Source: Treponema sp. (GTDB lineage Bacteria; Spirochaetota; Spirochaetia; Treponematales; Treponemataceae). Taken from it: 64,000 bases of DNA. A program made the translations under genes and the position numbers. How positions within the stretch are numbered: the first letter of the stretch is position 1; each line of letters opens with the position of its first letter. Location: positions 902-64,901 of the forward strand of contig JAILCM010000181.1 in assembly GCA_024680155.1 (NCBI GenBank), written 5' to 3'. Of this stretch, positions 43,809 to 57,078 are shown piece by piece. A model generated the notes under the pieces. That model was given only the letters and a program-made list of their open reading frames with translations. It was not told where the DNA came from and did no database searches.

Positions 43809-44441
43809 ATGATAATTATATTTGTTGATATTTCGATGAAAGATGATTTAACGGCTGTATGCTATAAAGAAACTGGAAATGCCTGTTGTAAATATGACAA
43901 ACCGGTTTACTACCCTATAAATGCTATTCTTTTCGAAAAAATGAAAAAAAATGATGACGTAAAAGTTGTTATGATTCAAACAAAAAGCAATGAAGAAAGA
44001 GTTTGCAAAAATACTCAAATTTTTAAGGAAGAATTAAACGAAATAAATGAATCGATTGGTGCAAAAATAAATTATATAGAAGTAAGTGCAGATTATAACG
44101 AAGCCAAGGAAAATCACGAAAAACGAATTCTAGCAATTCTGGAGCAGATAGAAAAAGGCTCCGAACTTTACGGTGATATAACATTTGGTCCGCGTACAGT
44201 TCCAATGGTAATGCTTTGTGCATTTGCTTTTGCCGAAAAATTTTATGATGCAGATATTAAAAAAATTGTTTATGGAAAAGTTGATTGGATAAGAAATCCA
44301 GAAACAAACAAAAGTGAGCCAAAAAATCCAGAACTTTTTGACGTAACATCATTGTATTATTTAAATTCACTTACTTACAATATGCAGTCCGAATCCGCAG
44401 AAAAAGCAATTAAATCTATGAAAACATTTTTTTCCCTTTAG
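43809..44441 (+). CDS. Stand-alone CARF-domain protein, TM1812/DxTHG (Csx1 N-terminal-like) family
   Basis: LYGDITFGPRTVP is the DxT[H/F]GxRxxP motif, followed by IVYG and FDVTSLYYL as in DxTHG CARF domains. 210 aa, no HEPN. Confidence 0.7.
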   Translation: MIIIFVDISMKDDLTAVCYKETGNACCKYDKPVYYPINAILFEKMKKNDDVKVVMIQTKSNEERVCKNTQIFKEELNEINESIGAKINYIEVSADYNEAKENHEKRILAILEQIEKGSELYGDITFGPRTVPMVMLCAFAFAEKFYDADIKKIVYGKVDWIRNPETNKSEPKNPELFDVTSLYYLNSLTYNMQSESAEKAIKSMKTFFSL

Positions 44442-44454
44442 GAATGCTTTAGGT

Positions 44455-45213
44455 ATGCAAAATATTCATGGAAACTTATTCTATAAAAAAATAAACAACC
44501 TCTATGCACAAATAATCGCAGAAAAAAATCCTCAAGATAAACGAAATCTTGAACAAAAACTTATTGTTGAAGTTTGGAATCAGACAAAAAGAAAGAATAA
44601 GAATGCCCCGGAAACAGAATGGGAACTACATGCAGATATTGTTACTGCAACAATAAAAAAATGCCTTGCTCCAGATTCAAAATTCGATAGAACAAAAAGT
44701 ACTTTTTCGCAATATTTACTAAAATCAATAAAAAAGAATATTAATAAAGCAATTAAAAATGAAAACAAAAAGAAATCAAAAGACACTCCCCTTGAGCAGC
44801 AAAATGATAATGGTGAAAGCTATTTTTTACCAGATATAATTACTCATACAAATCCAGAAATAATGATAACAGAAATTCAGAAAGTCCTTATGATTGAAGA
44901 ACTTAGAGACGATTTTAACAAAATTGAAAATGCCTTCTTACAGGAAAAAGAAAATCAAGCAGCAAAATCAACATTTATAACACGTGATATAATTTACATA
45001 CTAAAAAAACAGGCTTCTGATTTACTTAAAGATGAAAAAATATTTTTACTTGGAAATAAATACAGTTTTTTAGAAAAAAAACTTTGGAACAATTATTTTT
45101 TCGTTAGTGATGAATTACCGACACAGGAACTTTTGGCCGCATCTATGGGGATAAAAAAATCAAACGCTAGCAAAATGATAAGCCGTTTTTATCAACGGTT
45201 AAAAAATTTTTAA
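44455..45213 (+). CDS. Orphan sigma70-family-like factor
   Basis: Region 2-like FDRTKSTFSQYLLKSIKKNI, a DTPLEQ..D.G...LPDI..NPE linker, and a region 4.2-like HTH TQELLAASMGIKKSNASKMISR. Starts 13 nt after the CARF gene. Confidence 0.65.
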   Translation: MQNIHGNLFYKKINNLYAQIIAEKNPQDKRNLEQKLIVEVWNQTKRKNKNAPETEWELHADIVTATIKKCLAPDSKFDRTKSTFSQYLLKSIKKNINKAIKNENKKKSKDTPLEQQNDNGESYFLPDIITHTNPEIMITEIQKVLMIEELRDDFNKIENAFLQEKENQAAKSTFITRDIIYILKKQASDLLKDEKIFLLGNKYSFLEKKLWNNYFFVSDELPTQELLAASMGIKKSNASKMISRFYQRLKNF

Positions 45214-45300: not shown

Positions 45301-46293
45301 ATGTACAGTCTGAAAGATTTATCGGAACATCTAAATACAAAACATAATCTTCCAGTCCAGGAAAACCAGATTCAAGATTTAAGAAATATTGGTTATTATC
45401 ATGGTTATAAAGGATATAGGTTTATACGAAAAGCTGGCAATTTGATTAATTTTACTGCATTTGGTCAGATTGTTGACTTGAATAATTTTGACATGCAGCT
45501 AAAGGGACTTTTCTACCCTAATTTGATGTTTATTGAAAATGCACTTAAAAGTTATGTTTTAGAAGCAATAAGTAATGAGTGTCCCGATGAAAAACTTAAT
45601 AGTGTATATATACACGCATTAACCCACTATAAAGATAATTTTCAGATTGGAAGCAATAACTATAAAAAAGAATTCAAGAAGCGAATGGACTTAGAGATGA
45701 AAATCAATTCAGCTTTGATCCGTGATTATATGCAAGGGAAAGACTTTATAAATCATTATTACAATCAAGATCGAGAAATTCCAATTTGGGCAGCTTTTGA
45801 AAGTCTAACTCTTGGTGAATTCGGAACATTTTATTCCTGTTCTGGCGAAAAAATTAGAACTGAAGTTTCAAAAACTCTAAAACTTCCTTCAAATCTAGAT
45901 TCAGATGGCTTTTTACTCGCTGATATAATTTTCTGCCTTAAAGATTTAAGAAATGCAATTGCACATAACGGAATTATTTTTGATACAAGATTCGCAAATG
46001 CAAAAATTCCAGACCGAGTAGTTAAATTAATCGAACAGGAATTAAAAATAAATAATCTGAATTTTGATTATATTATTGCCTATATCGCATTAGTAGTTTA
46101 CGTTTTAAATAACATGGGAGAAAGAAAACGTTGCAAGAGTTTTATCAACGAATTTCTTACACTTCATGGAATACTTAAAAATCTACCAAAAGACTGCAAA
46201 ATGAAAATAGAAGGAACACAAGAAAAACTCATAGTTTCGGCTCTTGGAAATTTATTAAAAGTTGACTTTTCAAAGAATTTACAGTATCTTTAA
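45301..46293 (+). CDS. Abi family (Abi_2 / AbiD-AbiF) HEPN RNase
   Basis: LRNIGYYH..KGY, FD..LK, IE.ALKS, IPIWAAFESLTLGE and the HEPN motif LRNAIAHN (RxxxxH). Confidence 0.88.
   Translation: MYSLKDLSEHLNTKHNLPVQENQIQDLRNIGYYHGYKGYRFIRKAGNLINFTAFGQIVDLNNFDMQLKGLFYPNLMFIENALKSYVLEAISNECPDEKLNSVYIHALTHYKDNFQIGSNNYKKEFKKRMDLEMKINSALIRDYMQGKDFINHYYNQDREIPIWAAFESLTLGEFGTFYSCSGEKIRTEVSKTLKLPSNLDSDGFLLADIIFCLKDLRNAIAHNGIIFDTRFANAKIPDRVVKLIEQELKINNLNFDYIIAYIALVVYVLNNMGERKRCKSFINEFLTLHGILKNLPKDCKMKIEGTQEKLIVSALGNLLKVDFSKNLQYL
46262..46290 (+). promoter_or_regulatory. sigma70 promoter embedded in the last codons of the Abi gene
   Basis: TTGACT-17 nt-TATCTT, ending immediately before the TAA stop. Confidence 0.6.
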
Positions 46294-46296
46294 AAA

Positions 46297-46366
46297 AGAT
46301 TGCGGTGGAGCCTTCGGGCGACACTTTAGGATTGGAGCTGATACGTTCGGCTCCTTTCATTTTTTT
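46297..46366 (+). ncRNA. Candidate abiF-type antitoxin RNA
   Basis: GTG-GA-GCC-TTCG-GGC-GA-CAC hairpin (UUCG tetraloop, GA/GA internal loop), then terminator GGAGCTGA-TACGT-TCGGCTCC plus a U tract. Has its own promoter and abuts an Abi_2 gene. Confidence 0.6.
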
Positions 46367-46369
46367 AAA

Positions 46370-47371
46370 TCAATCAGCCGACGATTGAAATTTTACCTTT
46401 TTCAAAATCATTTCTTTCACATCTTCTAGATTTTTAATTTCTTTATTGATTATTGAGAGTTGTTCTTCTATATCAGACTTTCTTGAAAAGATATTTGTTA
46501 TATCCAATTCTTTCCTATATGATTCTAATTCATAGAATCTTTTTTCAATCTCATTTAAAATCAGTGAAGTTCTATTTTGTACCTCAGAACTCAACTTTGA
46601 AACCACAGTCGATTTCTGAACTTCTTTTGAACAAAGTTCTATTGTTTCATAAAGACTACTAATCAGAGTATACAAAGGTTCCATTAACTCAAGCTTACGT
46701 TGATGCCTTTTTATGGAAGCTAAATAATCCTCATAATCGTCGAAAAGATTTCTATTATAATCTTCTTCCCCCCAATAATCATCCATATTTATTATGGGAA
46801 AAAGATCTTTTACAAAAATATTTGAAATATCAGATAAATATACGGTATCTCGACCATTCAACAATGCACTTACTTGCAAAATATGAACAATACCTTGCCA
46901 TTTTGTATCTACGTATTCAGTCCGATTAAATAAAATCAATCTTTTTACACCATCGCTTAACCTGACTTTCTGTGATTCTGTCTGCAACATAGACACTTCT
47001 GAACTCGTTAAACGAAGATTTTTTTGCTCATCTGTAGTTTCAAGCATAGGAAAATCAGCAGTTATAAAATCAAAGAAATTTGATTCAGCAATCTCTGGAA
47101 CATCTATTTCTTTTACAAAACCGCTTTTATTATAAGGCACAGTTTTAGGATCAAGAGGAGAAATCATTTGCAATGCATACTTTACTCTATCACAAATCTC
47201 ATTTTGTAAAAGTACATCATTTCCTTTTAGTTCAATTTTCCCATATGCATATGAAAAGAGTACGAGTTGTTTTATTACATATTCCTGGCCATATAAACCT
47301 TGTGTCAAATACTCTAAGAGCTTTTTGATTCTGTTTGGATAATCTTTTTTGTCAATTTCACTTATATGCAT
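46370..47371 (-). CDS. RavA/MoxR-derived protein lacking the ATPase core, with C-terminal coiled coil
   Basis: RIKKLLEYLTQGLYGQEYVI resembles the RavA N-terminus and W..IV.ILQVSALLNGRDTV...D resembles the RavA lid. No GPPGxxK Walker A and no DE Walker B. GGAGA SD supports a start at 47371. Confidence 0.55.
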   Translation of the reverse strand: MHISEIDKKDYPNRIKKLLEYLTQGLYGQEYVIKQLVLFSYAYGKIELKGNDVLLQNEICDRVKYALQMISPLDPKTVPYNKSGFVKEIDVPEIAESNFFDFITADFPMLETTDEQKNLRLTSSEVSMLQTESQKVRLSDGVKRLILFNRTEYVDTKWQGIVHILQVSALLNGRDTVYLSDISNIFVKDLFPIINMDDYWGEEDYNRNLFDDYEDYLASIKRHQRKLELMEPLYTLISSLYETIELCSKEVQKSTVVSKLSSEVQNRTSLILNEIEKRFYELESYRKELDITNIFSRKSDIEEQLSIINKEIKNLEDVKEMILKKVKFQSSAD

Positions 47372-47398
47372 TTTTTCTCCTTTCAAATGTATTTTAGA

Positions 47399-47971
47399 TT
47401 ACATAAACGGCCATCCGTTGCTCAATATATCTTTTTCTGAAACAAGAATCTCCATTGTATGTTCCTTTCTTTCATATTCAACTCCATTTTTATATCTATC
47501 AGATAAAAAAATGACTTTCTGATTTTTTGAACCTACCCAATCACGTTCCGTATCAGGCTGAGTTTTATCATATAAGCCGTCAATAAGAATATCAGTGTTC
47601 AATAAAAGTTTTTCAATAAACAAATCTTCAAATTTTAAGAGGGATTCATACAAAAATCCAGTAAATAACAATACCGATAGATTGTTATTTTGACACCATT
47701 CCGCAATAAAACTCAAACCTTCGGCTTGCAAAACTGGTTCTCCACCAATGAATGAAACACCTTCAATATCAAAATCATCTTTTGATTTCTGAATAAGATG
47801 TATTAAATCTTCTACTTCCACTACATGAGATTGCTTAAATTCTTGCATTTGCTGATTACAGCAATCAGGGCATCGTTGCTTACAGCCCTGTACCCACAAA
47901 GCAAATCGTTTTCCAGGTCCCTCGGATTCTGTACAAAGTCTGACTGCCGCAAGATTCAAAAATGTTTTCAT
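47399..47971 (-). CDS. NrdG-like radical SAM (glycyl-radical activase family) protein
   Basis: GPGKR..LWVQGC, CxxxCxxC (CKQRCPDC), GGEP, DILIDG, GSKNQ. No nrdD in the window. Confidence 0.88.
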   Translation of the reverse strand: MKTFLNLAAVRLCTESEGPGKRFALWVQGCKQRCPDCCNQQMQEFKQSHVVEVEDLIHLIQKSKDDFDIEGVSFIGGEPVLQAEGLSFIAEWCQNNNLSVLLFTGFLYESLLKFEDLFIEKLLLNTDILIDGLYDKTQPDTERDWVGSKNQKVIFLSDRYKNGVEYERKEHTMEILVSEKDILSNGWPFM

Positions 47972-47974
47972 AAT

Positions 47975-49798
47975 TTACACAAAATCAAATTCAAAAATTG
48001 GCTTTTTAAGAGTAATTTTTATTCGTCGCCCTTCTACCATATCAGAACGCATAAAAATCCATTCAGCAAGAGGATTTACTATATAAGTTTCTATAGTATT
48101 TAAAAGACCACGACCACCATTTGCAATTCCAGCCTTTTGTGAAATAAATGTAAAGGATTCATCTTCATTATCAAATTCCAAAGTTGCCTTGTATTTTTCT
48201 TTGACAAAATTTTCAACGGCAACGAATTTGGCTTTAGCAATCTGAACAAATACATTTGAATCATTGATAAAGTTGAAAGCAACAATATTATCACCAATAC
48301 GATTCAAAAGTTCCGGGCGCTTTAACTCGTTCACAAAATGCTCTTTTACCTTTAAAACAAAAGTATCGCGAATTTGTTTTTCATTCATGCCACTTGGATT
48401 TACATCTGCCGCACCAATATTAGATGTAAAAATAATAATTGTCTCCGCAAAAGAAACTGTTTCGCCCTTTCCATCAGTAAGTCGTCCGTCTTCCAGAATT
48501 TGCAAAAACTTATCAAGAATACGACCATGCGCTTTTTCAATTTCATCAAACAAGATTACGCAGAAAGGCTTTTCTTTTACAGCATTTGTAAGCTGACCGC
48601 CAGCTTCATACCCGACATATCCCGGAGGCGCACCAACAAGCCTCTGATCGCTCTGCTCATGGTTATACTCAGACATATCAAAACGAATACAAGCATTTTC
48701 ATCACCAAAAACGAATTCTGCAAGAGCTTTAGCAAGTTCTGTTTTACCAACGCCTGTAGGTCCTACAAAAAATAATGTGCCCTTAGGTTTCTTTTGTTTT
48801 GCCGAATGTTGTAAACCAGAAAAGCCTGTATAAGCACGGATAATTACATCTTTTACTTTTTCGATTGCCTGTGACTGACCTTTTACTCTTTCAGAAAGTC
48901 GTTCTTCCACCTGAGTTAGTTTTTCTTTTGAAAGTTCTTCCCAAGGACTAACCTTTTCGCCATATTTGTAAAGATTTATCAGTTTTTCAAAACTCATTGA
49001 TTCTTTATTCTGTCGGGAAAGTTTCATAAGTTGAGCAATTTCTTTGAGAGTAAAACTATCAAGTGCATCAATCAAATCATCAAATATTTTCTTATCATCA
49101 ATATTTTGACAAATATTTAGACAAGTCTTGTTTTCTGAAACAAAGCTCTCTCTCTCGTTTCTACTTGGAAGCGGAATATTCACAGAACTCACAAGAGGAT
49201 TGTTCAAATAATAAGAAGGAGGAATCATTGCATTATTCTTTGTAACAAGGATAACTATATTTTCTACAGCAGCAAATGTTTCCGAAAGCATATCATATGA
49301 TTGAGAATCTTTGAGCGTTTTACCTAAAGTTGTAAGATACTGTCGTTCCGCATCAGTAAGAGAGTTTGCATTTCCAAAGATAAAATCAGAATAATCAAGA
49401 ATAAATGCAGTTTTTCCTGTACCACCTTTTATTGCATGCAACATAAAAGGAAAAAATTCACCAGGTTCAGGATAAGTATTTGAAGATTCCGATTCATCTT
49501 CAAAATCATCTCCCAAATCGTAAGAACTTTCACTAAGCTGCGAATCATCAATTAAATTACTAATTTCGATTTTATCAGAAAGTTTTTCATCTATTCCATT
49601 TACCCTATCCCATTTTACGACTTTTTCGTACCCTTTTTTTTTCAAATTTCTAATTAGTAGCTCTACAAGATTTCCATATTTTCCGCTATTCAATGAATCG
49701 AAATAAATGTCATCTGTGTTGCCAAAAATGATTATTGACGATTTTATTCCAGAATCGCGGTTAAACCTTTCAAGCCAAGCCATTTTATTCTCTGCCAT
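47975..49798 (-). CDS. AAA+ ATPase with a degenerate N-terminal AAA-like domain and an active ClpB-D2-like domain
   Basis: C-terminal [36 protein letters not shown]. The N-terminal half has IIIFGN/FILDY strands but no P-loop. No Clp N repeats and no M domain. Confidence 0.88.
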   Translation of the reverse strand: MAENKMAWLERFNRDSGIKSSIIIFGNTDDIYFDSLNSGKYGNLVELLIRNLKKKGYEKVVKWDRVNGIDEKLSDKIEISNLIDDSQLSESSYDLGDDFEDESESSNTYPEPGEFFPFMLHAIKGGTGKTAFILDYSDFIFGNANSLTDAERQYLTTLGKTLKDSQSYDMLSETFAAVENIVILVTKNNAMIPPSYYLNNPLVSSVNIPLPSRNERESFVSENKTCLNICQNIDDKKIFDDLIDALDSFTLKEIAQLMKLSRQNKESMSFEKLINLYKYGEKVSPWEELSKEKLTQVEERLSERVKGQSQAIEKVKDVIIRAYTGFSGLQHSAKQKKPKGTLFFVGPTGVGKTELAKALAEFVFGDENACIRFDMSEYNHEQSDQRLVGAPPGYVGYEAGGQLTNAVKEKPFCVILFDEIEKAHGRILDKFLQILEDGRLTDGKGETVSFAETIIIFTSNIGAADVNPSGMNEKQIRDTFVLKVKEHFVNELKRPELLNRIGDNIVAFNFINDSNVFVQIAKAKFVAVENFVKEKYKATLEFDNEDESFTFISQKAGIANGGRGLLNTIETYIVNPLAEWIFMRSDMVEGRRIKITLKKPIFEFDFV

Positions 49799-50923
49799 TT
49801 ACATATTCCTCCTTATTGTATTACTTGAAGTTTCTTGAGTTCGTGAAAGTCTATCGGGATTTTCCCAAATAACACGCTCATCAGAGAATTTTACTGAATA
49901 GATTTTTTTTAAATCAACATTGAATTTTTCTATATCCTTAAGACATGTCATTCCTTCGTACTTGTCAAAGCGGTAATTAAGCTTTCCTTCAAGGCTGATT
50001 TTACAAGTTGCCTGTTTTCCAGAATGCTTTTTAGCCTTAATAAGAACATATGAATCTTTATCAAGCCCAACTAAATCCCATGATACATCAAACCCCTGAT
50101 TTTTTAATTCCCTGACAATTGCTTTTGCAGTTTCACGACGGACTTCTTCATCAATCAAAGAATTATCAACAGAAGAACGAATTGTATCGAGTTTTTCTGC
50201 AACTTCAGATTCTGAAGATTCAGAAGTAAGAGAATCTCTTAAAGCTTGCATTTCATTGAGAATTTTATTCTTGTTATCTGCGATTTCAAATTTTTCATTT
50301 TCGGTTGATTTGATAGCAGAATCTATTTGAGCAGAAAGAATTGCAATTTTTTCTGCAGCAAGTTTTTCTTCTTTCCATTTTTTTGCCTTTTTGTCAGCTA
50401 AATCACAAACTGTTTTGATTTGTTGTTTCAGTTCTTCTTCTGAGGAAATATTTTCGTTTTGGATTTTTGATTTTATGTTTTCTAATTCTTGAACAGCAAA
50501 ATTTGCTACAGCAGGACTTTTGATTTGTGACAACTGCTCATAAAAAAAATCTTCAAGTTTAGATTTTGCCTCGGCTTTCTGCCGTTGTATTTCTTCATAC
50601 CTAATCCGTTCTTGTCTTGCAAATTCTTCTTTTGCTGAACGAACAAGAAAATCCATTGAACTCAAGGAATTTTGTACTTGATAACACAATCTGCGTGCTT
50701 CAAAAACATCTGTCTGCAAAAGATTAGCAATAGATTTCATATTCCGGCCAAGCTCGCCCATCTCATCGGGAATGTAAGTATCGTATTCTGCAGCTTTCAT
50801 TTCCGAAAAACATGCAGTAATTTCTTTGAAGGCTCTTTCTGAAAATTCTTTAGCCCGATTGCGTTCTAATTCCTCACGACGTTTACGTTCAAGCGCATAT
50901 CTCGCATCATATTCGTGGCTCAT
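49799..50923 (-). CDS. Coiled-coil protein with a small alpha/beta C-terminal domain
   Basis: Long heptad helices, then LKNQGF.V...ISLEGKLNYRFDKYEGMTCLKDI...WENPD. GGAGGA SD and an ATGA overlap set the start at 50923. Confidence 0.75.
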   Translation of the reverse strand: MSHEYDARYALERKRREELERNRAKEFSERAFKEITACFSEMKAAEYDTYIPDEMGELGRNMKSIANLLQTDVFEARRLCYQVQNSLSSMDFLVRSAKEEFARQERIRYEEIQRQKAEAKSKLEDFFYEQLSQIKSPAVANFAVQELENIKSKIQNENISSEEELKQQIKTVCDLADKKAKKWKEEKLAAEKIAILSAQIDSAIKSTENEKFEIADNKNKILNEMQALRDSLTSESSESEVAEKLDTIRSSVDNSLIDEEVRRETAKAIVRELKNQGFDVSWDLVGLDKDSYVLIKAKKHSGKQATCKISLEGKLNYRFDKYEGMTCLKDIEKFNVDLKKIYSVKFSDERVIWENPDRLSRTQETSSNTIRRNM

Positions 50924-52869
50924 ATGTTCTTTCCTCCATTGTTTGTTTTTTTCAATTCCGCAATTCTGGAATTTATCTGACAATTATATTTTTCCACAAT
51001 TTCTATAGTTCCATAACAGTTCTTTAGATTCCCGAAATTAGTTTTCCATGTATTCAAAGCGTCCTTTAATTTCTTTTCATCACTTTCGGAATTTATTTTT
51101 TTCAGTAAAGAAGCAAAATCCAATGCTCTTTTCTCTAAATCGCAGTGTGAACCTTCAAGTTTTTCTGAAAACGCTTTTTTAAATACATCGTTTTTTGCCT
51201 GTTCTGAATACAATTTCCCGATAACTCTCTGCTTATCAAGAAAGCCAACAGAATCAAAAGATATATTCTTAATAAATTCAATCAATTTCCAAATTTCTTC
51301 GACAGAATCTGTTGGTTGGAGAGATTCAAGCACTATTTTTAGAAAATCCCGTAAAACCTGATTTTTAACAATAGAAATTGAAGAATAATATTCTATAATC
51401 TTCCTTGCTGAAGAAAAATCCGTAACACTCTGCTTGATTTGTTCCTTGTTGATAATCAGATTGAACACAATTTCATCAGAAACACATTTTTTGCCAGTCA
51501 GATTGAAACTGCGCTGATTCAGTTCATTGATTTTCTCGGATTTGTCTTTTACAGAACCATTTGAGACAAGTTTTTCAAAATATGAATTGAATTCATTCTT
51601 AAAGCCATTCTCTTCATTCAAAAGGAGCAGGACACTCGGCTCGGTTCTAAAATATTTTTCCACGAGTGGCAGAATGAAATTCTTGGTATTTGGCTTTACG
51701 TTTTTGGGAAGATATGCAAAAGTCAATTCTTTTGAAACGTCTCCAGCTTTTACAGGAAATTTTTCGACATTTAGTGAAAAAGTTTCGTTCATAAAAATAA
51801 TATTCGGCGGCAATATTCTTTCTGGAACAGACAAAACGAAAATTGCGTTTTCGGAAGAAATTGAAAAATTCTGTGAATTTGACAAAATAACAATTCTTAA
51901 GGACTGTTTTTTATCGCTTTTTTTATTTTTCGTGTCTGATTTTTTCACAAGTTTTTCTTTATCAAAAAGAGAGCTTTCGATTAAAAAAGTTTTATAGGTA
52001 TCATTTTTCAGATAAGATTGAATACGATTATTCAAATCATTAAACAAGATTATCTGCTGAATCTGCTCATCAGGCTTAGAGATTTCAGTTAAAGGACATT
52101 TCACAAGGCTTTCTAGTGGAGTATTCTCAAAATTTTCCAAGCTTGACTCTTCAAGTTCCGTAACCTTATTGCCTTCGATTTTCCAAATAAGTCCGTCTTT
52201 TAACTGCACCTTACAGGAAATATTGTCAAAGCAAGTTTCTATTTTTATTGGCAGAACAGAATCAATTTCCGTGTTGTTTTTCAGCCAATCAAGTTTTTTC
52301 TGCTTTTTTTTCTTTCCTTTTCCTTGTTCTGAGTTTTCTAGATTTTCATTTTTAGGTCTTTGGGATTCAATATATTCACGGACAAGCCTTTTTGGGAAAG
52401 GCGTTTCCTCAACAGAAACATAATTACCTTCTGCTTCATCACTAAATTTTTCCCTATCCCAAATCAACTTATTTTTAGAAACATCATAGACAACATCAAG
52501 CATATCATTTGAATGCTCACCAGGCAAAAGCCCTTTCTGCTGCATTTCTCTTCCAAGAGAAAGAACTTCAACATCTTTCAGAGTAAGTTCAGAAAGGAGA
52601 ATATCATCGGTCAGTTTGGGACAGGTAACTGCCTGTAAATCATATAGTTTTTTCAGAATCGGCTTTATGAGTTTTTCAGGATTTTCAATATGAAAATAAT
52701 TCTTGAAAAAATCTTCTAAATTTTCATTCTGAAATTCAGTTCCGCTCGATTTTATCAAGATTTCCAAAAAGAGCCATTCAAATGCTGTTGAATTTCGCGA
52801 TGTTACATGAGAAACATTCACTTTATATTTTACAAACGGATATGAAATTATTTCTTCACAAACTTCCAT
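50920..52869 (-). CDS. Hypothetical helicase partner protein (649 aa), possible N-terminal winged helix
   Basis: Starts 9 nt after the helicase stop with an AGGAG SD. N-terminal R..T.FEWLFLE...LIKPILKKL...LGREM pattern. No HKD or PD-(D/E)xK motif recognised. Confidence 0.7.
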   Translation of the reverse strand: MEVCEEIISYPFVKYKVNVSHVTSRNSTAFEWLFLEILIKSSGTEFQNENLEDFFKNYFHIENPEKLIKPILKKLYDLQAVTCPKLTDDILLSELTLKDVEVLSLGREMQQKGLLPGEHSNDMLDVVYDVSKNKLIWDREKFSDEAEGNYVSVEETPFPKRLVREYIESQRPKNENLENSEQGKGKKKKQKKLDWLKNNTEIDSVLPIKIETCFDNISCKVQLKDGLIWKIEGNKVTELEESSLENFENTPLESLVKCPLTEISKPDEQIQQIILFNDLNNRIQSYLKNDTYKTFLIESSLFDKEKLVKKSDTKNKKSDKKQSLRIVILSNSQNFSISSENAIFVLSVPERILPPNIIFMNETFSLNVEKFPVKAGDVSKELTFAYLPKNVKPNTKNFILPLVEKYFRTEPSVLLLLNEENGFKNEFNSYFEKLVSNGSVKDKSEKINELNQRSFNLTGKKCVSDEIVFNLIINKEQIKQSVTDFSSARKIIEYYSSISIVKNQVLRDFLKIVLESLQPTDSVEEIWKLIEFIKNISFDSVGFLDKQRVIGKLYSEQAKNDVFKKAFSEKLEGSHCDLEKRALDFASLLKKINSESDEKKLKDALNTWKTNFGNLKNCYGTIEIVEKYNCQINSRIAELKKTNNGGKNI

Positions 52870-52878
52870 TATAGGCTC

Positions 52879-55800
52879 CTATTTTACACTCGATTCTTTG
52901 TATTCTTCCAAAATTACCTTTTCTAAATCAGCCGAAATTAATTTTGAAGATCGTGCAAAACAACCTCGACGTTTTAAATCATCGATAATAGTCTCATAAA
53001 CAGGAAGGGTTATCTCGCCCTCGCTGTCCATCTTTGGAATTGTGATTTTCTGCCTTCTATAAGTATGCTCCGCTCCTACAATAAATAAAAGATTCTGCGC
53101 ACGAGAAAATGCAACATTTATTCGCTCATAAGTAACAACATGCTTTGAGGCATTTCCAAATTTATTATTTCTAACAAGGCTCGTAATGATGATGTTTTTC
53201 TCTTTGCCTTGAAATCTGTCTACAGTGTTCACATCAACATCAATAGATTCAAAATCAGACTTGAATTCTTTTGCAGTGCGGATTTTCTTTACTTCAGTCC
53301 GAATTTCATTAACCTGTCGCTGATAAAAACTGATTACACCGACAGAAACAGGATTGTCTTTAGTTCCGAACAAAACTTTTTCACCTTTATCATTTATTCC
53401 CTCATAAGGATTTTTCTTGTAATAAGTGGCAATCTTTTTCAAGAGCTCTACAATCAGATATTTTTCAAGAATATTGCAAGCTGAAGTACTGTTTTCAATA
53501 AAAGTTTCATTTATAGGAGTTCCGCTCGGCAAAAATGAAGAATTAATCCAGTAAACATGATTCATCGGCTGAATGAAAGAAGATCCGTCAATTCCGTCAA
53601 TCTTAAGATTATGGGCTTTTTCCCAGGCTTCTTCCCCTGTTGAAAGTCCATTCCGCAATCTGCCGTCATAAAAACGGTTGATTACATTCATAATATCGGA
53701 GTGCATACGATACTGTGTCAGAAGCGAATGTTTGATTTTTTCATCAGCCTTTTCAAAATACGATTTAAAAAGAGAGGCTGTTACCATATTCTTATATTTA
53801 TTGAAATTCTCTTCTGTTAAAACAGCCCTTAACTCTTCTTCGTCATCACTCAAATCATCAATCATCTCTTTGTATGATTTCTCGTGTTCCTCAAACATCG
53901 GCGGAAGCTGACGATGGTCGCCAACAAGAATAACTTTTCCAGCCTTCATAAGCGGTATAAGCAGTTCCGGTGGAGTTGCCTTACTTACCTCATCAATTAT
54001 AACTACATCAAAATTGTCAAAACCTTTTTGAGTAAGTTTTATCATATTGTTGGTACAGGAAATACCGACTACATTGCAGGAATTTATGTAATCATCAATA
54101 AAAAACTCATTGTCGTACTTAAAAGTATTTTCGTCGTCAAGTTTTTTACAGAATTTCTGCATTGTGTCACCAAAGATTGAGCGGATAAGTTTTGAGTTTT
54201 CCTGCTCATTCTGCAATTCTTTTAGACGAGAGTTTATTGTTTCTGACAGGTCAATATCATTAGTATCTTCCGAAGCGTTATATCTTGAACGAAGTTCACG
54301 GATTTGTTTTTGCTTTGAGTTACTCTGATTCTGCTTATCAGAACGTTCCTGTTTGAGAACTGTGATTTTCCCTTCAAGTAAGTGTTTTTGTTCTGTAAGT
54401 GCATTAAATTCTTCTGCTGATTCAGAACGGAGCAAATCCTGCATTTTACTCTGTGCGGAATAAACTGCGGCATTCCATTCGCTGCAAATAGATTCAAGTA
54501 GGGAAACCACAGAATTTTTGTCATCTTTACAGCGGTTCTGCAAATCCTCCGAAAATGAGTTTTGTATATTAGTAGATAATTCTAATCCACCTGAGATTTG
54601 AAGTTTATCTTTTTTCAGTTTCAGTTCTTTAAGTTCTTTTTTCTTTGCACGGCTTTTTTCGAAATCATCGGACTCAAATGCCTCTGACATTTCCTTTCTG
54701 CACAATTCAATTCTTGCATTAAGATTTGAAAGTTCAGAATTTGCAGTGTTTGAAGAAACCGATTTATTTAAATTTTCAATTAAATTCTTGATTTCTTTTG
54801 TGATAAGCTGATGTGCCAAAATAAAGTTTTCAGGAATTGATATTCCACTGACACTTGAAAAAGTTTTGATATTTTCCAATTCTTTTACGAGAATTGAATC
54901 AAATTCATCTGGAAGAACTTCATACGCTTTACCACCTTTTATAAAAATTTTGAAAGTCTCGAACTTTCTACGTAGATTTTCCTTGTCAGATTCAGCGTCT
55001 TCAATTTTTTTAATTCTGTCTTCAACATGGCTATAATTAGAATTTGCAGAATCTAGTTCTTTTTGTTTTTCCATAATCTGACTGCGAAGAGAATTCAAAT
55101 CATCTTGCAAAAGAGAAATATCGCGTGCATCTTTCTTGCATTGGGCAAGTTCTTCGTCAGATTTTTTCCAGTTATCAAGGAACTTTGAAGAAATAGACTC
55201 CGAAAGCGACTTGTAATAATACTTCAAGGCATCTTTTTCAATGTATTTACAGTCCTGCTCCTCACCGTTCTTCTTTTTCTTTTTCCCACCACGACCACCA
55301 AGACGAATAGCACGGATAGAAGGATTGTTTGCAAGCCTGTCCAAAGCGTTATCAACTGCATCGTTAGACTGCGAAGAAACAAGAACACGAAGCCCTTTTC
55401 GAGTAAACTGATATATTATCTCAGCGATTACAGTTGTTTTTCCAGTTCCAGGCGGTCCTTGTAACAAAAACAATTCTTCTGCATTTAAGGCCTTTTCTAC
55501 AGCACGTCTCTGGTTTTCATTTTCTGCAATTTTAGGATTCGCCCAATCTGTTATCTGAGGTGCTTCATTTACAGGAACAGAAGCGTTTTTTACATTAAAA
55601 AGCCAGTTTATAAGAGTCTGTGAATAGCAGTTTCCTTCACGTAAATCATTTATCGCATTTTCAAAACGTCTGATAAGAGCAAATTCGCCTGCTGCAGAAA
55701 GTGCAATAAAACCATTTTTCGGAATGTCTGAAAGATATTTTTCAATATCTAGGTCATCTTCTTCGGGAAGTTTATAAGAAGAATAAACAACATAAGCACA

Positions 55801-56721
55801 TTTGAACTGATTTTTCAAATCCTCTTCCGAAAAAGATTCTTTGCTTGAAGCAATAATTTCCTTGTCTTTTTCAGGTGACTTCGGATGTTCATGAACAGCA
55901 TTAGGATTTTCTTCTGAAATTCCTTTTAATTCATGTTCATTTGAAAAAGAAGTATTTTCAGAAGATTTCTGGAAAGAGCCTAACTCAACTCTATCAATAA
56001 AACGTAAATCTCTATCGTATTTAAAATTCCAAAAATCAAGCGAAATCAAGTTGTTATAAACACAAGCATTGCTTTTTTGTAGATAACGATTTTCTCTTTC
56101 AAATACAGCTTTGGATTCAAAAATCAAACCAAAAGTAAGTGTATTATTTTCATTGTCAAATTTAAAATCAAAATATTTTGCGCCATGAATCTGTTTATTC
56201 GCAATTTCCCGTCGCCACCGAAGATAAAGTTGCCATTCCTGAAGATTTTTGACGGTTGCAGCACGAAGTGAATCAAGAGAAGCAACACAATCCACAAAAG
56301 TTTCGTCACTGGGATTAGGTCTAGGTATTACAAGAATTTCAGTCTCTCTCTCATAATCTTGTATATCAGTTTTTTGCACAATTTGTATAGAGTCAATTAT
56401 AGCACATCCATTATAACGATGTCCGACAAACAGGAACGTTTCATTAGCACCAAGATAACGTTCGCAAAAATCCCCTTCTTCATGAACAGAACGGAGCCCA
56501 AAAGCAATTCTTTCACTTGAAGCAGAAAGATTACGAACAAAAATATGTTTTGGCAAACCTACAGGAAAAACTTCTTTAATAACCGAGTCAAGAAGATTAT
56601 TTGTTCCTAAATCTCTTAATTTAGGACAACGAGTTAACAAATCTTTTATATTTTCTTTTCGTTTTTGTTCATCACGATTTCCAACATTTAGTCTGATGCA
56701 AATTTTTACTCGATCTACCAT
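52879..56721 (-). CDS. Superfamily 1 helicase, DNA2/NAM7(Upf1)-like, with a large coiled-coil insertion
   Basis: QGPPGTGKT, SSQSNDAVDN, IIDEVSK, VGDHRQLPP, LTQYRMH, TVDRFQGKEK and RINVAFSRA are all intact. Confidence 0.92.
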   Translation of the reverse strand: MVDRVKICIRLNVGNRDEQKRKENIKDLLTRCPKLRDLGTNNLLDSVIKEVFPVGLPKHIFVRNLSASSERIAFGLRSVHEEGDFCERYLGANETFLFVGHRYNGCAIIDSIQIVQKTDIQDYERETEILVIPRPNPSDETFVDCVASLDSLRAATVKNLQEWQLYLRWRREIANKQIHGAKYFDFKFDNENNTLTFGLIFESKAVFERENRYLQKSNACVYNNLISLDFWNFKYDRDLRFIDRVELGSFQKSSENTSFSNEHELKGISEENPNAVHEHPKSPEKDKEIIASSKESFSEEDLKNQFKCAYVVYSSYKLPEEDDLDIEKYLSDIPKNGFIALSAAGEFALIRRFENAINDLREGNCYSQTLINWLFNVKNASVPVNEAPQITDWANPKIAENENQRRAVEKALNAEELFLLQGPPGTGKTTVIAEIIYQFTRKGLRVLVSSQSNDAVDNALDRLANNPSIRAIRLGGRGGKKKKKNGEEQDCKYIEKDALKYYYKSLSESISSKFLDNWKKSDEELAQCKKDARDISLLQDDLNSLRSQIMEKQKELDSANSNYSHVEDRIKKIEDAESDKENLRRKFETFKIFIKGGKAYEVLPDEFDSILVKELENIKTFSSVSGISIPENFILAHQLITKEIKNLIENLNKSVSSNTANSELSNLNARIELCRKEMSEAFESDDFEKSRAKKKELKELKLKKDKLQISGGLELSTNIQNSFSEDLQNRCKDDKNSVVSLLESICSEWNAAVYSAQSKMQDLLRSESAEEFNALTEQKHLLEGKITVLKQERSDKQNQSNSKQKQIRELRSRYNASEDTNDIDLSETINSRLKELQNEQENSKLIRSIFGDTMQKFCKKLDDENTFKYDNEFFIDDYINSCNVVGISCTNNMIKLTQKGFDNFDVVIIDEVSKATPPELLIPLMKAGKVILVGDHRQLPPMFEEHEKSYKEMIDDLSDDEEELRAVLTEENFNKYKNMVTASLFKSYFEKADEKIKHSLLTQYRMHSDIMNVINRFYDGRLRNGLSTGEEAWEKAHNLKIDGIDGSSFIQPMNHVYWINSSFLPSGTPINETFIENSTSACNILEKYLIVELLKKIATYYKKNPYEGINDKGEKVLFGTKDNPVSVGVISFYQRQVNEIRTEVKKIRTAKEFKSDFESIDVDVNTVDRFQGKEKNIIITSLVRNNKFGNASKHVVTYERINVAFSRAQNLLFIVGAEHTYRRQKITIPKMDSEGEITLPVYETIIDDLKRRGCFARSSKLISADLEKVILEEYKESSVK

Positions 56722-56727
56722 AATCTT

Positions 56728-56736
56728 ATTATATCA
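56728..56736 (-). promoter_or_regulatory. Extended -10 promoter (leaderless) of the six-gene operon
   Basis: TGATATAAT on the minus strand, ATG 6 nt downstream, no SD. Confidence 0.55.
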
Positions 56737-56797: not shown

Positions 56798-56832
56798 AAA
56801 AAAGGCTTCTTTCAGTGTGAAAGAAGCCTTTG
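56798..56832 (-). terminator. Intrinsic terminator insulating the island from the upstream core operon
   Basis: AAAGGCTTCTTTCA-GTG-TGAAAGAAGCCTTT with an A-tract on the left (U-tract on the minus strand). Confidence 0.75.
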
Positions 56833-56856: not shown

Positions 56857-57078
56857 CTATTTATCCAACAACTTATCAATAGATTTTGTAAGTTCAGCCT
56901 GCTCTTTTGGGAAGTTGGCGTTTAAAAATTCAAAACATTCAACTGCAGAGCGCTGAGCGTGTTCGTACCAGATTGAATAAAGTTCGGTTGTAATTTCACC
57001 ACCGGGAAAAGGAGCTCCCTGAATGGCAGAGACCAGTCCGCGCATCATTTTTACACATTCTTTTGTCTTTTTATCCAT
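56857..57078 (-). CDS. Small hypothetical protein
   Basis: AAGGAG SD, 73-aa ORF, followed by a terminator. Confidence 0.7.
   Translation of the reverse strand: MDKKTKECVKMMRGLVSAIQGAPFPGGEITTELYSIWYEHAQRSAVECFEFLNANFPKEQAELTKSIDKLLDK

Follow-up and report, generated by a model that had tools for sequence, protein, structure and literature searches.

The window, by which we mean the whole 64,000-nucleotide stretch of the Treponema sp. contig analysed here, was found to possess a minus-strand operon in which five genes constitute a widespread unit that is likely an anti-phage system and for which no name was found. A role of the operon in defence is, taken by itself, quite probable. Our preferred reading goes further, and we give it a probability of roughly 45%: genes 1–5 would form an RNA-targeting anti-phage operon, in which a helicase and its adaptor are switched by an unfoldase whose substrate is the gene 3 protein, once this has been bound and modified by a radical SAM enzyme, and the present lineage, which is without the PIN RNase of its relatives, possibly uses a neighbouring Abi_2 protein. 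A full-text literature search returned no description of the five-gene system; it covers subscription papers thinly and preprint supplements might list the neighbourhood, leaving absence from the literature unproven.

Table 1. Features of the operon and its surroundings (positions within the window).
Feature	Position	Strand	Remarks
Terminator-like hairpin	56801..56831	(-)	14-pair stem and T run; separates the operon from an upstream small ORF
Extended -10 box (TG-A-TATAAT)	56728..56736	(-)	6 nt 5' of the helicase ATG; left boundary of the swappable slot; likely leaderless promoter
Gene 1, Upf1/DNA2-like SF1 helicase, 1280 aa	52879..56721	(-)	AAA_11/AAA_12 and motifs
Gene 2, CnuE-like adaptor, 649 aa	50920..52869	(-)	N-terminal winged helix; C-terminal PIN deleted in frame
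Gene 3, helical/coiled-coil protein, 374 aa	49799..50923	(-)	DUF2997-like C-terminus; Y322-x-G324-x-x-C327, W353-x-N-P-D
Gene 4, AAA+, 607 aa	47975..49798	(-)	Degenerate N-terminal module and intact ClpB-D2-like module
Gene 5, NrdG/PFL-activase-type radical SAM, 190 aa	47399..47971	(-)	Fer4_12; C-terminal extension absent from NrdG
Gene 6, ATPase-dead RavA derivative	46370..47371	(-)	Passenger; without the Lcl_C (DUF1566) domain of five homologues
Promoter-like site (TTGACT-17-TATCTT) and two-hairpin RNA with U-run end	46262..46362	(+)	Downstream of Abi; right boundary of the slot
Abi_2 (AbiD/F family) HEPN RNase	45301..46293	(+)	115 bits; RNAIAH motif (217) intact; candidate trans-acting output
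Sigma-70 ECF-like protein, flanking block	44455..45213	(+)	TIGR02937 below cut-off; adjoins Abi in 6/21 Abi loci
Stand-alone CARF protein, flanking block	43809..44441	(+)	PADLOC CARF2, 252 bits

The original prediction described six co-oriented ORFs, and both their coordinates and their intergenic gaps of 9, -4 (ATGA), 0, 3 and 27 nt were confirmed, with gene 3 starting at 50923 in the ATGA overlap with gene 2. The motifs claimed for an intact helicase, a GYVG pore loop and a radical SAM CxxxCxxC were all located, and the expected Abi and CARF neighbours gave profile matches (Table 1). The G+C content of the operon is 0.34 compared with 0.37 for the genome. A leaderless promoter at the extended -10 box is plausible, since the spacing between box and ATG is the same in three other loci (L001, L002, and L088). 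It differs in L003 and L014, however, and a generic promoter scan stayed at chance level (63 sites vs. 52.4 ± 7.9).

By locus comparison, the conserved unit comprises genes 1–5, with gene 6 outside it. The predicted multi-gene system therefore stood for five genes and not for six: gene 6 was absent from all other loci (0/74 genome loci and 0/2 metagenome loci), closest relatives included. It had been taken for an ATPase-less RavA derivative, in agreement with which it possesses no GxxxxGK[ST] and matches the RavA lid only. The gene is inserted at the stop codon of gene 5, where relatives run directly into the terminator, and is truncated compared with all five homologues; in L122, a full-length homologue stands third in a RavA-ViaA operon. 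With the queries used, no RavA or ViaA was detected elsewhere in the 82%-complete genome. The slot extending from the -10 box to the small-RNA terminator was found to be exchanged exactly for RavA-ViaA, at both ends in the L002/L122 pair (where identity stops just beyond the -10 box) and at the terminator end in L001/L121, and of ten operon-free Abi loci that were extended, seven carry RavA-ViaA in it. Such exact cassette exchange shows a mode by which the island is rebuilt. On these alignments gene 6 is a truncated passenger from a RavA-ViaA cassette of the kind that sister genomes carry in this chromosomal slot. A machine of six genes, in which the dead RavA is a working subunit, would agree with the orientation of gene 6, its good ribosome-binding site and its position inside the likely transcript, but is extremely unlikely given its absence from 74/74 genome and 2/2 metagenome loci, its truncation, the complete copy in L122 and its insertion at the gene 5 stop.

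The helicase, the gene 3 coiled coil, the ClpB-D2-like ATPase and the radical SAM enzyme occur together in 36/39 fully visible non-mycoplasma loci belonging to many phyla, and helicase and gene 3 in 17/17 fully visible mycoplasma loci, two distant loci (L073 and L074, E about 1e-26) being excluded from these counts. Within the genus the operon is present in 6/301 genomes, and it was found on 10 plasmid records, a defence-like distribution. As the original prediction expected, no named system was matched. An "anaerobic" machine had also been proposed. This is unsupported, because the five genes are also found in Acinetobacter, Microbacterium, and Corallococcus, which are aerobes. Defence neighbours across the loci include BREX, CARF-Lon, PDC-S01, SoFic, viperin, McrC, and RnlA. 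Their predicted enrichment around the operon was observed but is weak: 10/128 flanking proteins scored at least 200 bits on defence models vs. 0/38 window controls (one-sided p = 0.068), at a threshold picked post hoc with the data already seen and with 31/159 flanking proteins omitted for size.

Gene 1 carries the complete SF1 motif set (GPPGTGKT at 422, DEVSK at 910, and RINVAFSRAQ at 1200), has a dN/dS of 0.13–0.14 and is predicted to be an RNA helicase; the corresponding helicase of L007 carries S1 domains. About 480 aa separate Walker A from Walker B, and the AAA_11 match falls in two stretches, which is a CnuH-like layout. Together, genes 1 and 2 are reminiscent of the CoCoNuT helicase-nuclease pair CnuH-CnuE, the likeness of gene 1 being one of layout. 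According to the CoCoNuT paper (Bell et al., 2024; PMC11090510), the Type II/III module likewise has a UPF1-like SF1 helicase in which Walker A is followed by a large insertion, a wHTH-effector gene comes after CnuH-family helicases, and CnuE, like the gene 2 family, is the product of the next gene and joins a wHTH N-terminus to a variable C-terminal nuclease. Unlike CoCoNuTs, the window locus is without a McrB-type GTPase (CnuB) and McrC (CnuC) pair, its gene 2 is without the fused nuclease of CnuE, and the other proteins encoded with the pair are a coiled coil that has a DUF2997 tail, a ClpB-D2-like ATPase and a radical SAM enzyme. The terms "radical SAM" and "ClpB" do not occur in the available text of that paper, nor do Fer4_12, NrdG, ClpA, DUF2997, or PIN_4 in four supplements (PMC11090510). 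No McrB or McrC match was obtained in the six genes and their neighbours or, with PADLOC, in 38 other window proteins, and McrC was found before the helicase in a single case (L070) when 41 flanking proteins were scanned.

Mokosh consists of a kinase fused to a helicase together with a PLD nuclease. Gene 1 matches the PADLOC model of MkoA with 367 bits over residues 287–1226, i.e., the helicase part only, and MkoA profile positions 1–516 are unmatched. The likeness to Mokosh (MkoA/MkoB, MkoC) is thus confined to this helicase part; kinase and PLD are absent here and three additional genes are present. No Pfam kinase or PLD match was obtained for any of the six genes, as the original prediction had also noted, and the sole HxKxxxxD string belongs to a variable helicase loop.

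For gene 2, the structure model (pLDDT 87) has a winged helix at residues 25–114, a stretch similar to numerous proteins of that fold (best Z 7.7, rmsd 2.8, 70 aligned), a Z below 8 indicating the fold class only. Foldseek searches with the gene 2 and gene 3 models returned nothing at E 0.001 or better, and the ESM Atlas returned unnamed clusters only. The closest relatives of gene 2 carry a C-terminal PIN_4; in the window copy this region is a clean gap in the alignment, and no PIN, RxxxxH or HKD was found. Among 26 non-mycoplasma copies, PIN was identified in eight and NYN in one, while 16 have no Pfam domain, including myxobacterial and planctomycete copies without a nearby Abi. RNxxxH is present in 5/19 mycoplasma ORFs at the gene 2 position, these being assigned by position alone because the gene 2 N-terminal profile reached no mycoplasma ORF. 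The PIN-less copies form one clade within the PIN-bearing ones, and dN/dS values (0.17–0.24 for gene 2; 0.06–0.24 for PIN-less copies overall) indicate purifying selection. By this tree, the PIN RNase was lost once, in this Treponema lineage, and gene 2 is still under selection. The nuclease-less lineage offers a natural experiment on output swapping in defence systems. Neither the deleted RNase domain nor the DUF2997-like end of gene 3 could be seen by the earlier reader.

Gene 4 possesses Walker A (346), GYVGY (393), Walker B (417), R-finger (494) and sensor 2 (561) motifs, with Walker A and the pore loop kept in 65/65 homologues, and is predicted to be a protein-unfolding motor; it has no [LIV]G[FL] tripeptide. 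ClpB combines Clp_N with two active AAA modules, whereas gene 4 has one active module (285 vs. 1232 bits). It shares a ClpB-like core with Dodola DolB and PADLOC PDC-M37B (78 and 117 bits, ATPase core only). However, the housekeeping ClpB of the window outscores it on both models (113 and 127 bits), no DolA or PDC-M37A match was found and no partner-gene model was matched.

Gene 5 has its CxxxCxxC at 30, and this motif together with GGEP is kept in 40/40 homologues. Its score on the NrdG model (95.8 bits) is below the cut-off of 126.1, among solved structures PFL-AE comes closest (E 1e-16), and the operon clade is unseparated from NrdG in the radical SAM tree. The protein keeps (D/E)GxGxR, which we take to be the peptide-binding motif of glycyl-radical activases. 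Activase-type radical SAM enzymes switch on metabolic enzymes. No RVSGY-like motif was found in any operon protein, the NrdD of the genome is on another contig, and NrdD is adjacent in two related loci only (L008 and L119). The gene 5 tail was considered as a DUF2997 mimic and rejected (probability 0.3). To our knowledge, the radical SAM immune enzymes known so far (viperins) act on nucleotides, and a protein-directed radical step, if true, would add a new kind of chemistry to immunity. The enzyme could alternatively make a modified nucleotide or small inhibitor in the manner of viperin, with the other genes controlling it, and a true viperin does follow the AAA+ gene in the mycoplasma-type locus L051 (209 bits); in several copies from gut bacteria the flanking genes are of kinase, HAD, carbamoyltransferase, and radical SAM types. 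We regard this as very unlikely, since the viperin (pVip) profiles cover residues 28–104 of gene 5 only (20 bits, E 9e-5; NF038283 at 18.7 vs. a cut-off of 180), in line with the earlier failure to recognise viperin-type features, and the size of the enzyme, its nearest structure and the retained (D/E)GxGxR point away from it.

The C-terminus of gene 3 aligned with DUF2997 in HHalign (probability 92, E 5e-7, score 39.7 over 49 columns, G-x-x-C included), compared with at most 14.2 for 20 column shuffles and at most 17.4 for six other alignments; the DUF2997 alignment held only 12 sequences. The Pfam model PF11211 matched 1/26 gene 3 C-terminal fragments (14.3 bits vs. a cut-off of 24.1) and none in G000. 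The gene 3 family comprises 449 or more clusters at 50% identity, with no annotation. VIA returned generic helical bundles for gene 3 and, for residues 261–358, KA1/spermine-synthase-N-like folds (Z 7.5–9.2, not specific). The match to DUF1257 was not significant (probability 2.8; a poor seven-row alignment including two spurious antisense ORFs), and a search of 121 Bacillota genomes for DUF2997 found none. The cysteine is kept in 147/147 gene 3 sequences and the glycine in 141/147. Loci with the radical SAM gene keep WxNP in 41/43 cases and the glycine in 41/43, vs. 1/21 and 11/21, respectively, for loci without it; this co-variation may be a single event, because the latter are nearly all from one clade, the mycoplasmas. 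Stand-alone DUF2997 proteins also keep G-x-x-C and 6/8 of them have no such radical SAM within 1.5 kb, for which reason the motif may be structural.

The radical SAM enzyme and gene 3 residues 245–374 were predicted to form a complex with a score of 0.42, vs. 0.01 for the best control; runs share at least 64% of contacts and partner pLDDT is at least 57. The mark used is reached by 116/157 solved and 2/215 mismatched pairs, with 18/157 solved pairs and both mismatches at or below 0.60. This is a weak prediction that the C-terminal domain of gene 3 binds the radical SAM enzyme, lending slight weight to the original idea that the AAA+ and radical SAM proteins act on the coiled-coil protein; that gene 3 is the protein partner of the enzyme we put at even odds. 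The DUF2997 link provides a candidate substrate residue pair (G324 and C327). It also makes testable an unexplained cluster of Ycf46-type AAA+, DUF1257 (Ycf35), DUF2997 and NrdG-like radical SAM, with whose DUF2997 the gene 3 end aligns and for which no reported function was found. Two Brachyspira-type loci combine a stand-alone DUF2997 with the same extended radical SAM (157 bits, full profile) and an AAA+ gene. Unlike in the Ycf46/Ycf35 cluster, the DUF2997 here forms one protein with a long coiled coil, the ATPase has a ClpB-D2-like module as its active one and a helicase-adaptor pair is attached.

These features would also suit a stress or RNA quality-control module, for rescue or decay of damaged ribonucleoprotein, in which the DUF2997 cysteine and the Fe-S enzyme serve as a redox or iron sensor and immunity plays no part. 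Eukaryotic nonsense-mediated decay has an Upf1-like helicase and PIN at its core, the gene 3 cysteine is invariant even in loci without radical SAM, and the enrichment of defence neighbours is weak. In cyanobacteria, DUF2997 and ycf35 are placed next to the ferredoxin gene fed7 (PMC4284462). The operon, however, is very patchy (2% of the genus) and plasmid-borne, gene 2 tails are swappable and the cassette is exchanged next to a toxin, and we consider such a module improbable.

Under the preferred reading of an RNA-targeting anti-phage operon, genes 1 and 2 would form a complex through wHTH and helical insertion, as has been modelled for CnuH-CnuE, and gene 3 would keep this complex off or tether it to the AAA+ ring. 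The radical SAM enzyme would dock on the C-terminal domain of gene 3 and equip the YxGxxC loop with a radical or a cross-link that arms or marks the protein. Upon infection, the AAA+ would thread gene 3 through its GYVG pore, freeing the helicase, which could then feed RNA to a PIN, NYN or HEPN domain where gene 2 carries one; in the PIN-less lineage it might strip the small RNA off the Abi_2 RNase. A broader version is unlikely: DUF2997, AAA+ and radical SAM would make up a general protein switch of bacterial conflict systems, in which a coiled-coil guard receives a radical or cross-link at its YxGxxC loop from an activase-type enzyme that has no target in metabolism. An unfoldase would recognise this mark, and the RNA helicase, once released, would trigger an RNase. 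In this Treponema lineage, where the nuclease of the helicase has been given up, the helicase would instead trigger a type III toxin encoded separately, from which it strips an RNA antitoxin of a new class.

Abi_2 and a conserved small RNA adjoin the operon in all five PIN-less genomes found. RNxxxH is kept in 6/6 Abi_2 proteins checked, and the protein had no sequence match in the PDB. The small RNA (66 nt, z -4.1) shows compensatory change in 10/15 pairs, its pattern recurs in 18/21 Abi loci, and it is a candidate RNA antitoxin. It had no Rfam match, RF03085 being above cut-off in 0/5 genomes (150 candidates scored per genome). The arrangement is like that of the AbiF type III toxin-antitoxin system, in which, according to the available parts of two accounts, an Abi_2 HEPN RNase with RxxxxH adjoins a separately promoted structured RNA (10.1101/2025.04.15.648962; PMC12737573). 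It differs in that the RNA is not the Rfam abiF RNA RF03085 and lies downstream of the toxin gene, vs. upstream for RCd22; those parts report no link to a helicase system (10.1101/2025.04.15.648962; PMC12737573).

That Abi_2 is the output of the operon in the PIN-less lineage is possible but doubtful. Abi is adjacent in 5/5 PIN-less genomes vs. present in 16/296 others, and the corresponding p of 1e-6 is an overstatement because the five genomes are kin; the Abi profile found none in the other 70 operon loci. A nuclease-free gene 2 needs no Abi_2, because the myxobacterial and planctomycete copies without a Pfam domain have no Abi nearby. The RavA-ViaA genes that fill the slot in most of the extended operon-free Abi loci offer a simpler account of the adjacency. 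The five genes could instead be a self-contained defence with a nuclease-free output here (e.g., a helicase-adaptor complex that stalls RNA or ribosomes), Abi being an independent toxin-antitoxin that marks an island hotspot. Such independence, which we likewise hold to be a tentative option only, accords with the exact exchange of the slot for RavA-ViaA in sister genomes, with the many non-Treponema gene 2 copies that also have no recognisable nuclease, with the promoter-like site and RNA that Abi has of its own, and with the Abi tree, where operon-linked genes fall on five separate branches, each nearest an operon-free copy. Against it, gene 1 has no lineage-specific insertion of at least 12 columns able to stand in for PIN, the only copy of the genus that possesses PIN (G028) is without Abi, and the adjacency of Abi is kept in both orientations (co-directional in L014) and at several distinct chromosomal sites.

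The five genes from the SF1 helicase (gene 1) to the activase-type radical SAM enzyme (gene 5) were found to form a real and mobile system. Species-representative genomes were scanned with gene 4, the ClpB-D2-like AAA+ ATPase, which yielded 74 loci (L-numbers denote loci extracted from other genomes), two of them distant and set aside. Among the 50 non-mycoplasma loci, 39 extend far enough for both sides to be visible; the helicase, the coiled-coil protein (gene 3) and the radical SAM enzyme were all present in 36 of these. The exceptions were L018, lacking the radical SAM gene, L019, lacking the helicase, and L054, with the ATPase alone; genes 3 and 5 are inverted in L020. The hosts include Spirochaetota, Bacillota, Actinomycetota, Planctomycetota, Myxococcota, Bacteroidota, Campylobacterota, Pseudomonadota and one archaeon. 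Mycoplasma and Ureaplasma (22 loci) possess a four-gene form, with the helicase and gene 3 in 17/17 fully visible loci and the radical SAM gene in 0/20. The ATPase gene was identified on 10 plasmid records, with the same five-gene order in both records opened, and gene 2, the CnuE-like adaptor, is present in 6 of 301 genomes of the window's genus. The six-gene system of the original prediction is therefore a conserved multi-gene unit as far as genes 1–5 are concerned, excluding gene 6, which was detected in none of the 74 genome loci, neither of the metagenome loci and none of 60 relatives. No name for the five-gene system was found in the literature searched. The L042 contig, a MAG labelled Klebsiella pneumoniae, groups with Myxococcota in both trees and is possibly mis-binned.

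As predicted, the six ORFs are co-oriented on the minus strand with gaps of 9, -4, 0, 3 and 27 nt, the catalytic motifs of the helicase, AAA+ ATPase and radical SAM enzyme are complete, and Walker A is absent from gene 6, a RavA derivative. An extended -10 box lies 6 nt upstream of the first ATG of the operon, a spacing kept in three of the five related Treponema loci checked. G+C is lower in the operon than in the genome (0.34 vs 0.37), and the nearest relatives of the operon are Treponema records.

Gene 6 is a truncated passenger. Its homologues (n = 5) are ~150 aa longer with Lcl_C at the end, and in L122 one of them occupies the third position in a RavA-ViaA operon. In relatives a terminator directly follows the radical SAM stop; in the window, gene 6 is placed at the stop codon of gene 5, which gains one residue. 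Common flanks of 85–90% identity are found in L002, carrying the five-gene operon, and L122 (RavA-ViaA-dead RavA), with identity stopping just past the -10 box and restarting at the last stop codon; the right-hand boundary is the same in L001 vs L121. When operon-free Abi loci were extended (n = 10), RavA-ViaA was found beside Abi in seven and a CBASS pair in one. On the basis of these shared boundaries and neighbors, the operon is one of several cassettes swapped beside the CARF/sigma-like/Abi block, and slot exchange explains gene 6. RavA-ViaA pairs, several with a RavA-Lcl_C fusion, occur as exchangeable cassettes adjoining Abi, CARF and sigma-like genes in L121–L125 and L127–L129, and a conflict role of such MoxR-vWA pairs is suggested; no paper on this role was found in the literature searched. 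Cas10, a possible ligand source for CARF, has one marginal match in the window's genome (27.7 vs 27 bits).

In gene 1, ~480 residues separate Walker A from Walker B, and the model of gene 2 (pLDDT 87) has a winged helix at its N-terminus. Bell et al. (PMC11090510) state that a CnuH-family helicase usually has a wHTH gene, variable in its nuclease, after it, and genes 1 and 2 match this CnuH/CnuE arrangement in layout. A Pfam scan of 26 non-mycoplasma gene 2 proteins gave a C-terminal PIN in eight, NYN in one, a Ppx-like domain in one and no match in 16, and the HEPN-type motif RNxxxH is present in 5/19 mycoplasma ORFs at this position. Over its entire length, gene 2 of the window can be aligned with relatives that bear PIN, and it is missing only their final helices and PIN domain; the PIN-less Treponema copies in the tree (n = 6) form a single clade amid PIN-bearing ones. 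The dN/dS values are 0.06–0.24 for all five genes, where dS was measurable. From these comparisons, PIN loss is old, with the rest of gene 2 maintained. No insertion able to replace the nuclease was gained in the helicase.

The gene 3 model has a helical part of ~275 residues followed by a small C-terminal alpha/beta domain, which resembles DUF2997 (probability 92, score 39.7, shuffles ≤14.2) at a level under the Pfam cut-off. In 149 distant family members the YxGxxC motif retains Cys in 147/147 aligned and Gly in 141/147. Two of eight stand-alone DUF2997 loci have a radical SAM enzyme matching the gene 5 profile over its full length, including the C-terminal extension that NrdG lacks. WxNP of gene 3 is present in 41/43 loci with the radical SAM gene vs 1/21 without, and the Gly of YxGxxC in 41/43 vs 11/21, 20 of the 21 being mycoplasmas. 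Complex prediction for gene 5 and residues 245–374 of gene 3 gave 0.42, the highest of three controls reaching 0.01 (contact agreement ≥64%, partner pLDDT ≥57), where passing scores ≤0.60 came from 18/157 solved complexes and both passing mismatches (2/215); the model weakly suggests that the two may bind. A glycyl-radical enzyme motif is absent from all proteins of the operon, which leaves gene 3 as the best candidate substrate of gene 5. Walker A and the pore loop of the ATPase are kept in 65/65 homologues and no ClpP-docking tripeptide was detected in the window's ATPase, so gene 4 likely remodels and does not degrade. Mycoplasma gene 3 proteins (L050–L072) have MSH as their first residues, and in nearly all of them the conserved cysteine is part of H-x-C, possibly a metal site replacing the radical SAM interaction.

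An Abi_2 gene adjoins the operon end in all seven PIN-less loci (window, L001–L003, L014, L087, L088), and a profile search detected Abi in none of the 70 other loci of the gene 4 scan. Within the genus, Abi is present in 5/5 PIN-less genomes, 0/1 PIN-bearing and 16/296 others overall. Its accompanying two-hairpin RNA (z = -4.1) shows compensatory change in 10/15 pairs, the promoter and two-hairpin pattern recurs in 18/21 Abi-carrying genomes of the genus, and in L014, where Abi is flipped, the RNA is still downstream of it. It fits an RNA antitoxin of the AbiF type III toxin-antitoxin kind, as described in two reports (10.1101/2025.04.15.648962; PMC12737573). It is not Rfam abiF and belongs to no Rfam family; it is a candidate new type III antitoxin. 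Abi genes linked to the operon fall on five separate branches of the tree, which would fit either repeated selection for the pairing or an operon that merely keeps landing in this slot.

A defence role of the five-gene operon is indicated indirectly by its patchiness, plasmid carriage, swappable RNase tails, MkoA match and neighbors. BREX, CARF-Lon, PDC-S01, SoFic, viperin, McrC and RnlA genes occur near operon loci; the defence-island enrichment raised by the original prediction is weak (10/128 flanking proteins vs 0/38 window controls, p = 0.068, threshold set afterwards). Identity of gene 4 with Dodola DolB or PDC-M37B was rejected, these matches being generic since housekeeping ClpB scores higher on both. 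By the features tested, the operon falls outside CoCoNuT, Mokosh, Dodola and viperins. Its most likely function is RNA-targeting defence of the CnuH/CnuE type, with a new module for control, the mechanism beyond gene content being putative. PIN-bearing copies are often flanked by small biosynthesis-like sets (nucleotide kinase, HAD, carbamoyltransferase, extra radical SAMs), downstream in L004, L009, L010, L012, L015, L017 and L160 and upstream in L159.

Coordinates of features in the window and in loci of other genomes
Feature	Locus	Position	Strand	Remark
Promoter-like site and two-hairpin RNA	Window	46262-46362	+	Downstream of Abi_2; also L099-L117
Stand-alone CARF and sigma-like gene pair	Window	43809-45213		Also L001, L002, L003, L087, L121, L124, L125, L129
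73-aa ORF	Window	56857-57078	-	Between M16 peptidase gene and upstream terminator of operon
CARF-Lon protease gene	L018	979-2472		Planctomycete; directly upstream of helicase; gene 2 without recognised nuclease
CARF-Lon protease gene	L020	2455-3999		As in L018
McrC	L070	635-2230		Metamycoplasma spumans; immediately upstream of four-gene operon; CoCoNuT and AAA+ types in one locus
Patatin and CD-NTase (CBASS)	L129	5889-8415		Immediately past Abi and its RNA
926-aa weak AAA_5 and 1186-aa DUF2357 proteins	L121	11770-18110		Upstream of CARF; resembles a CoCoNuT-like pair (coiled-coil McrBC)
Short NrdD (559-565 aa)	L008	12992-14689		Adjoins radical SAM gene of operon; has NrdG-like gene of its own
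Short NrdD (559-565 aa)	L119	103-1782		Adjoins radical SAM gene of operon
Prokaryotic viperin	L051	11497-12384		Ureaplasma-labelled; after AAA+ gene; activase-type radical SAM absent
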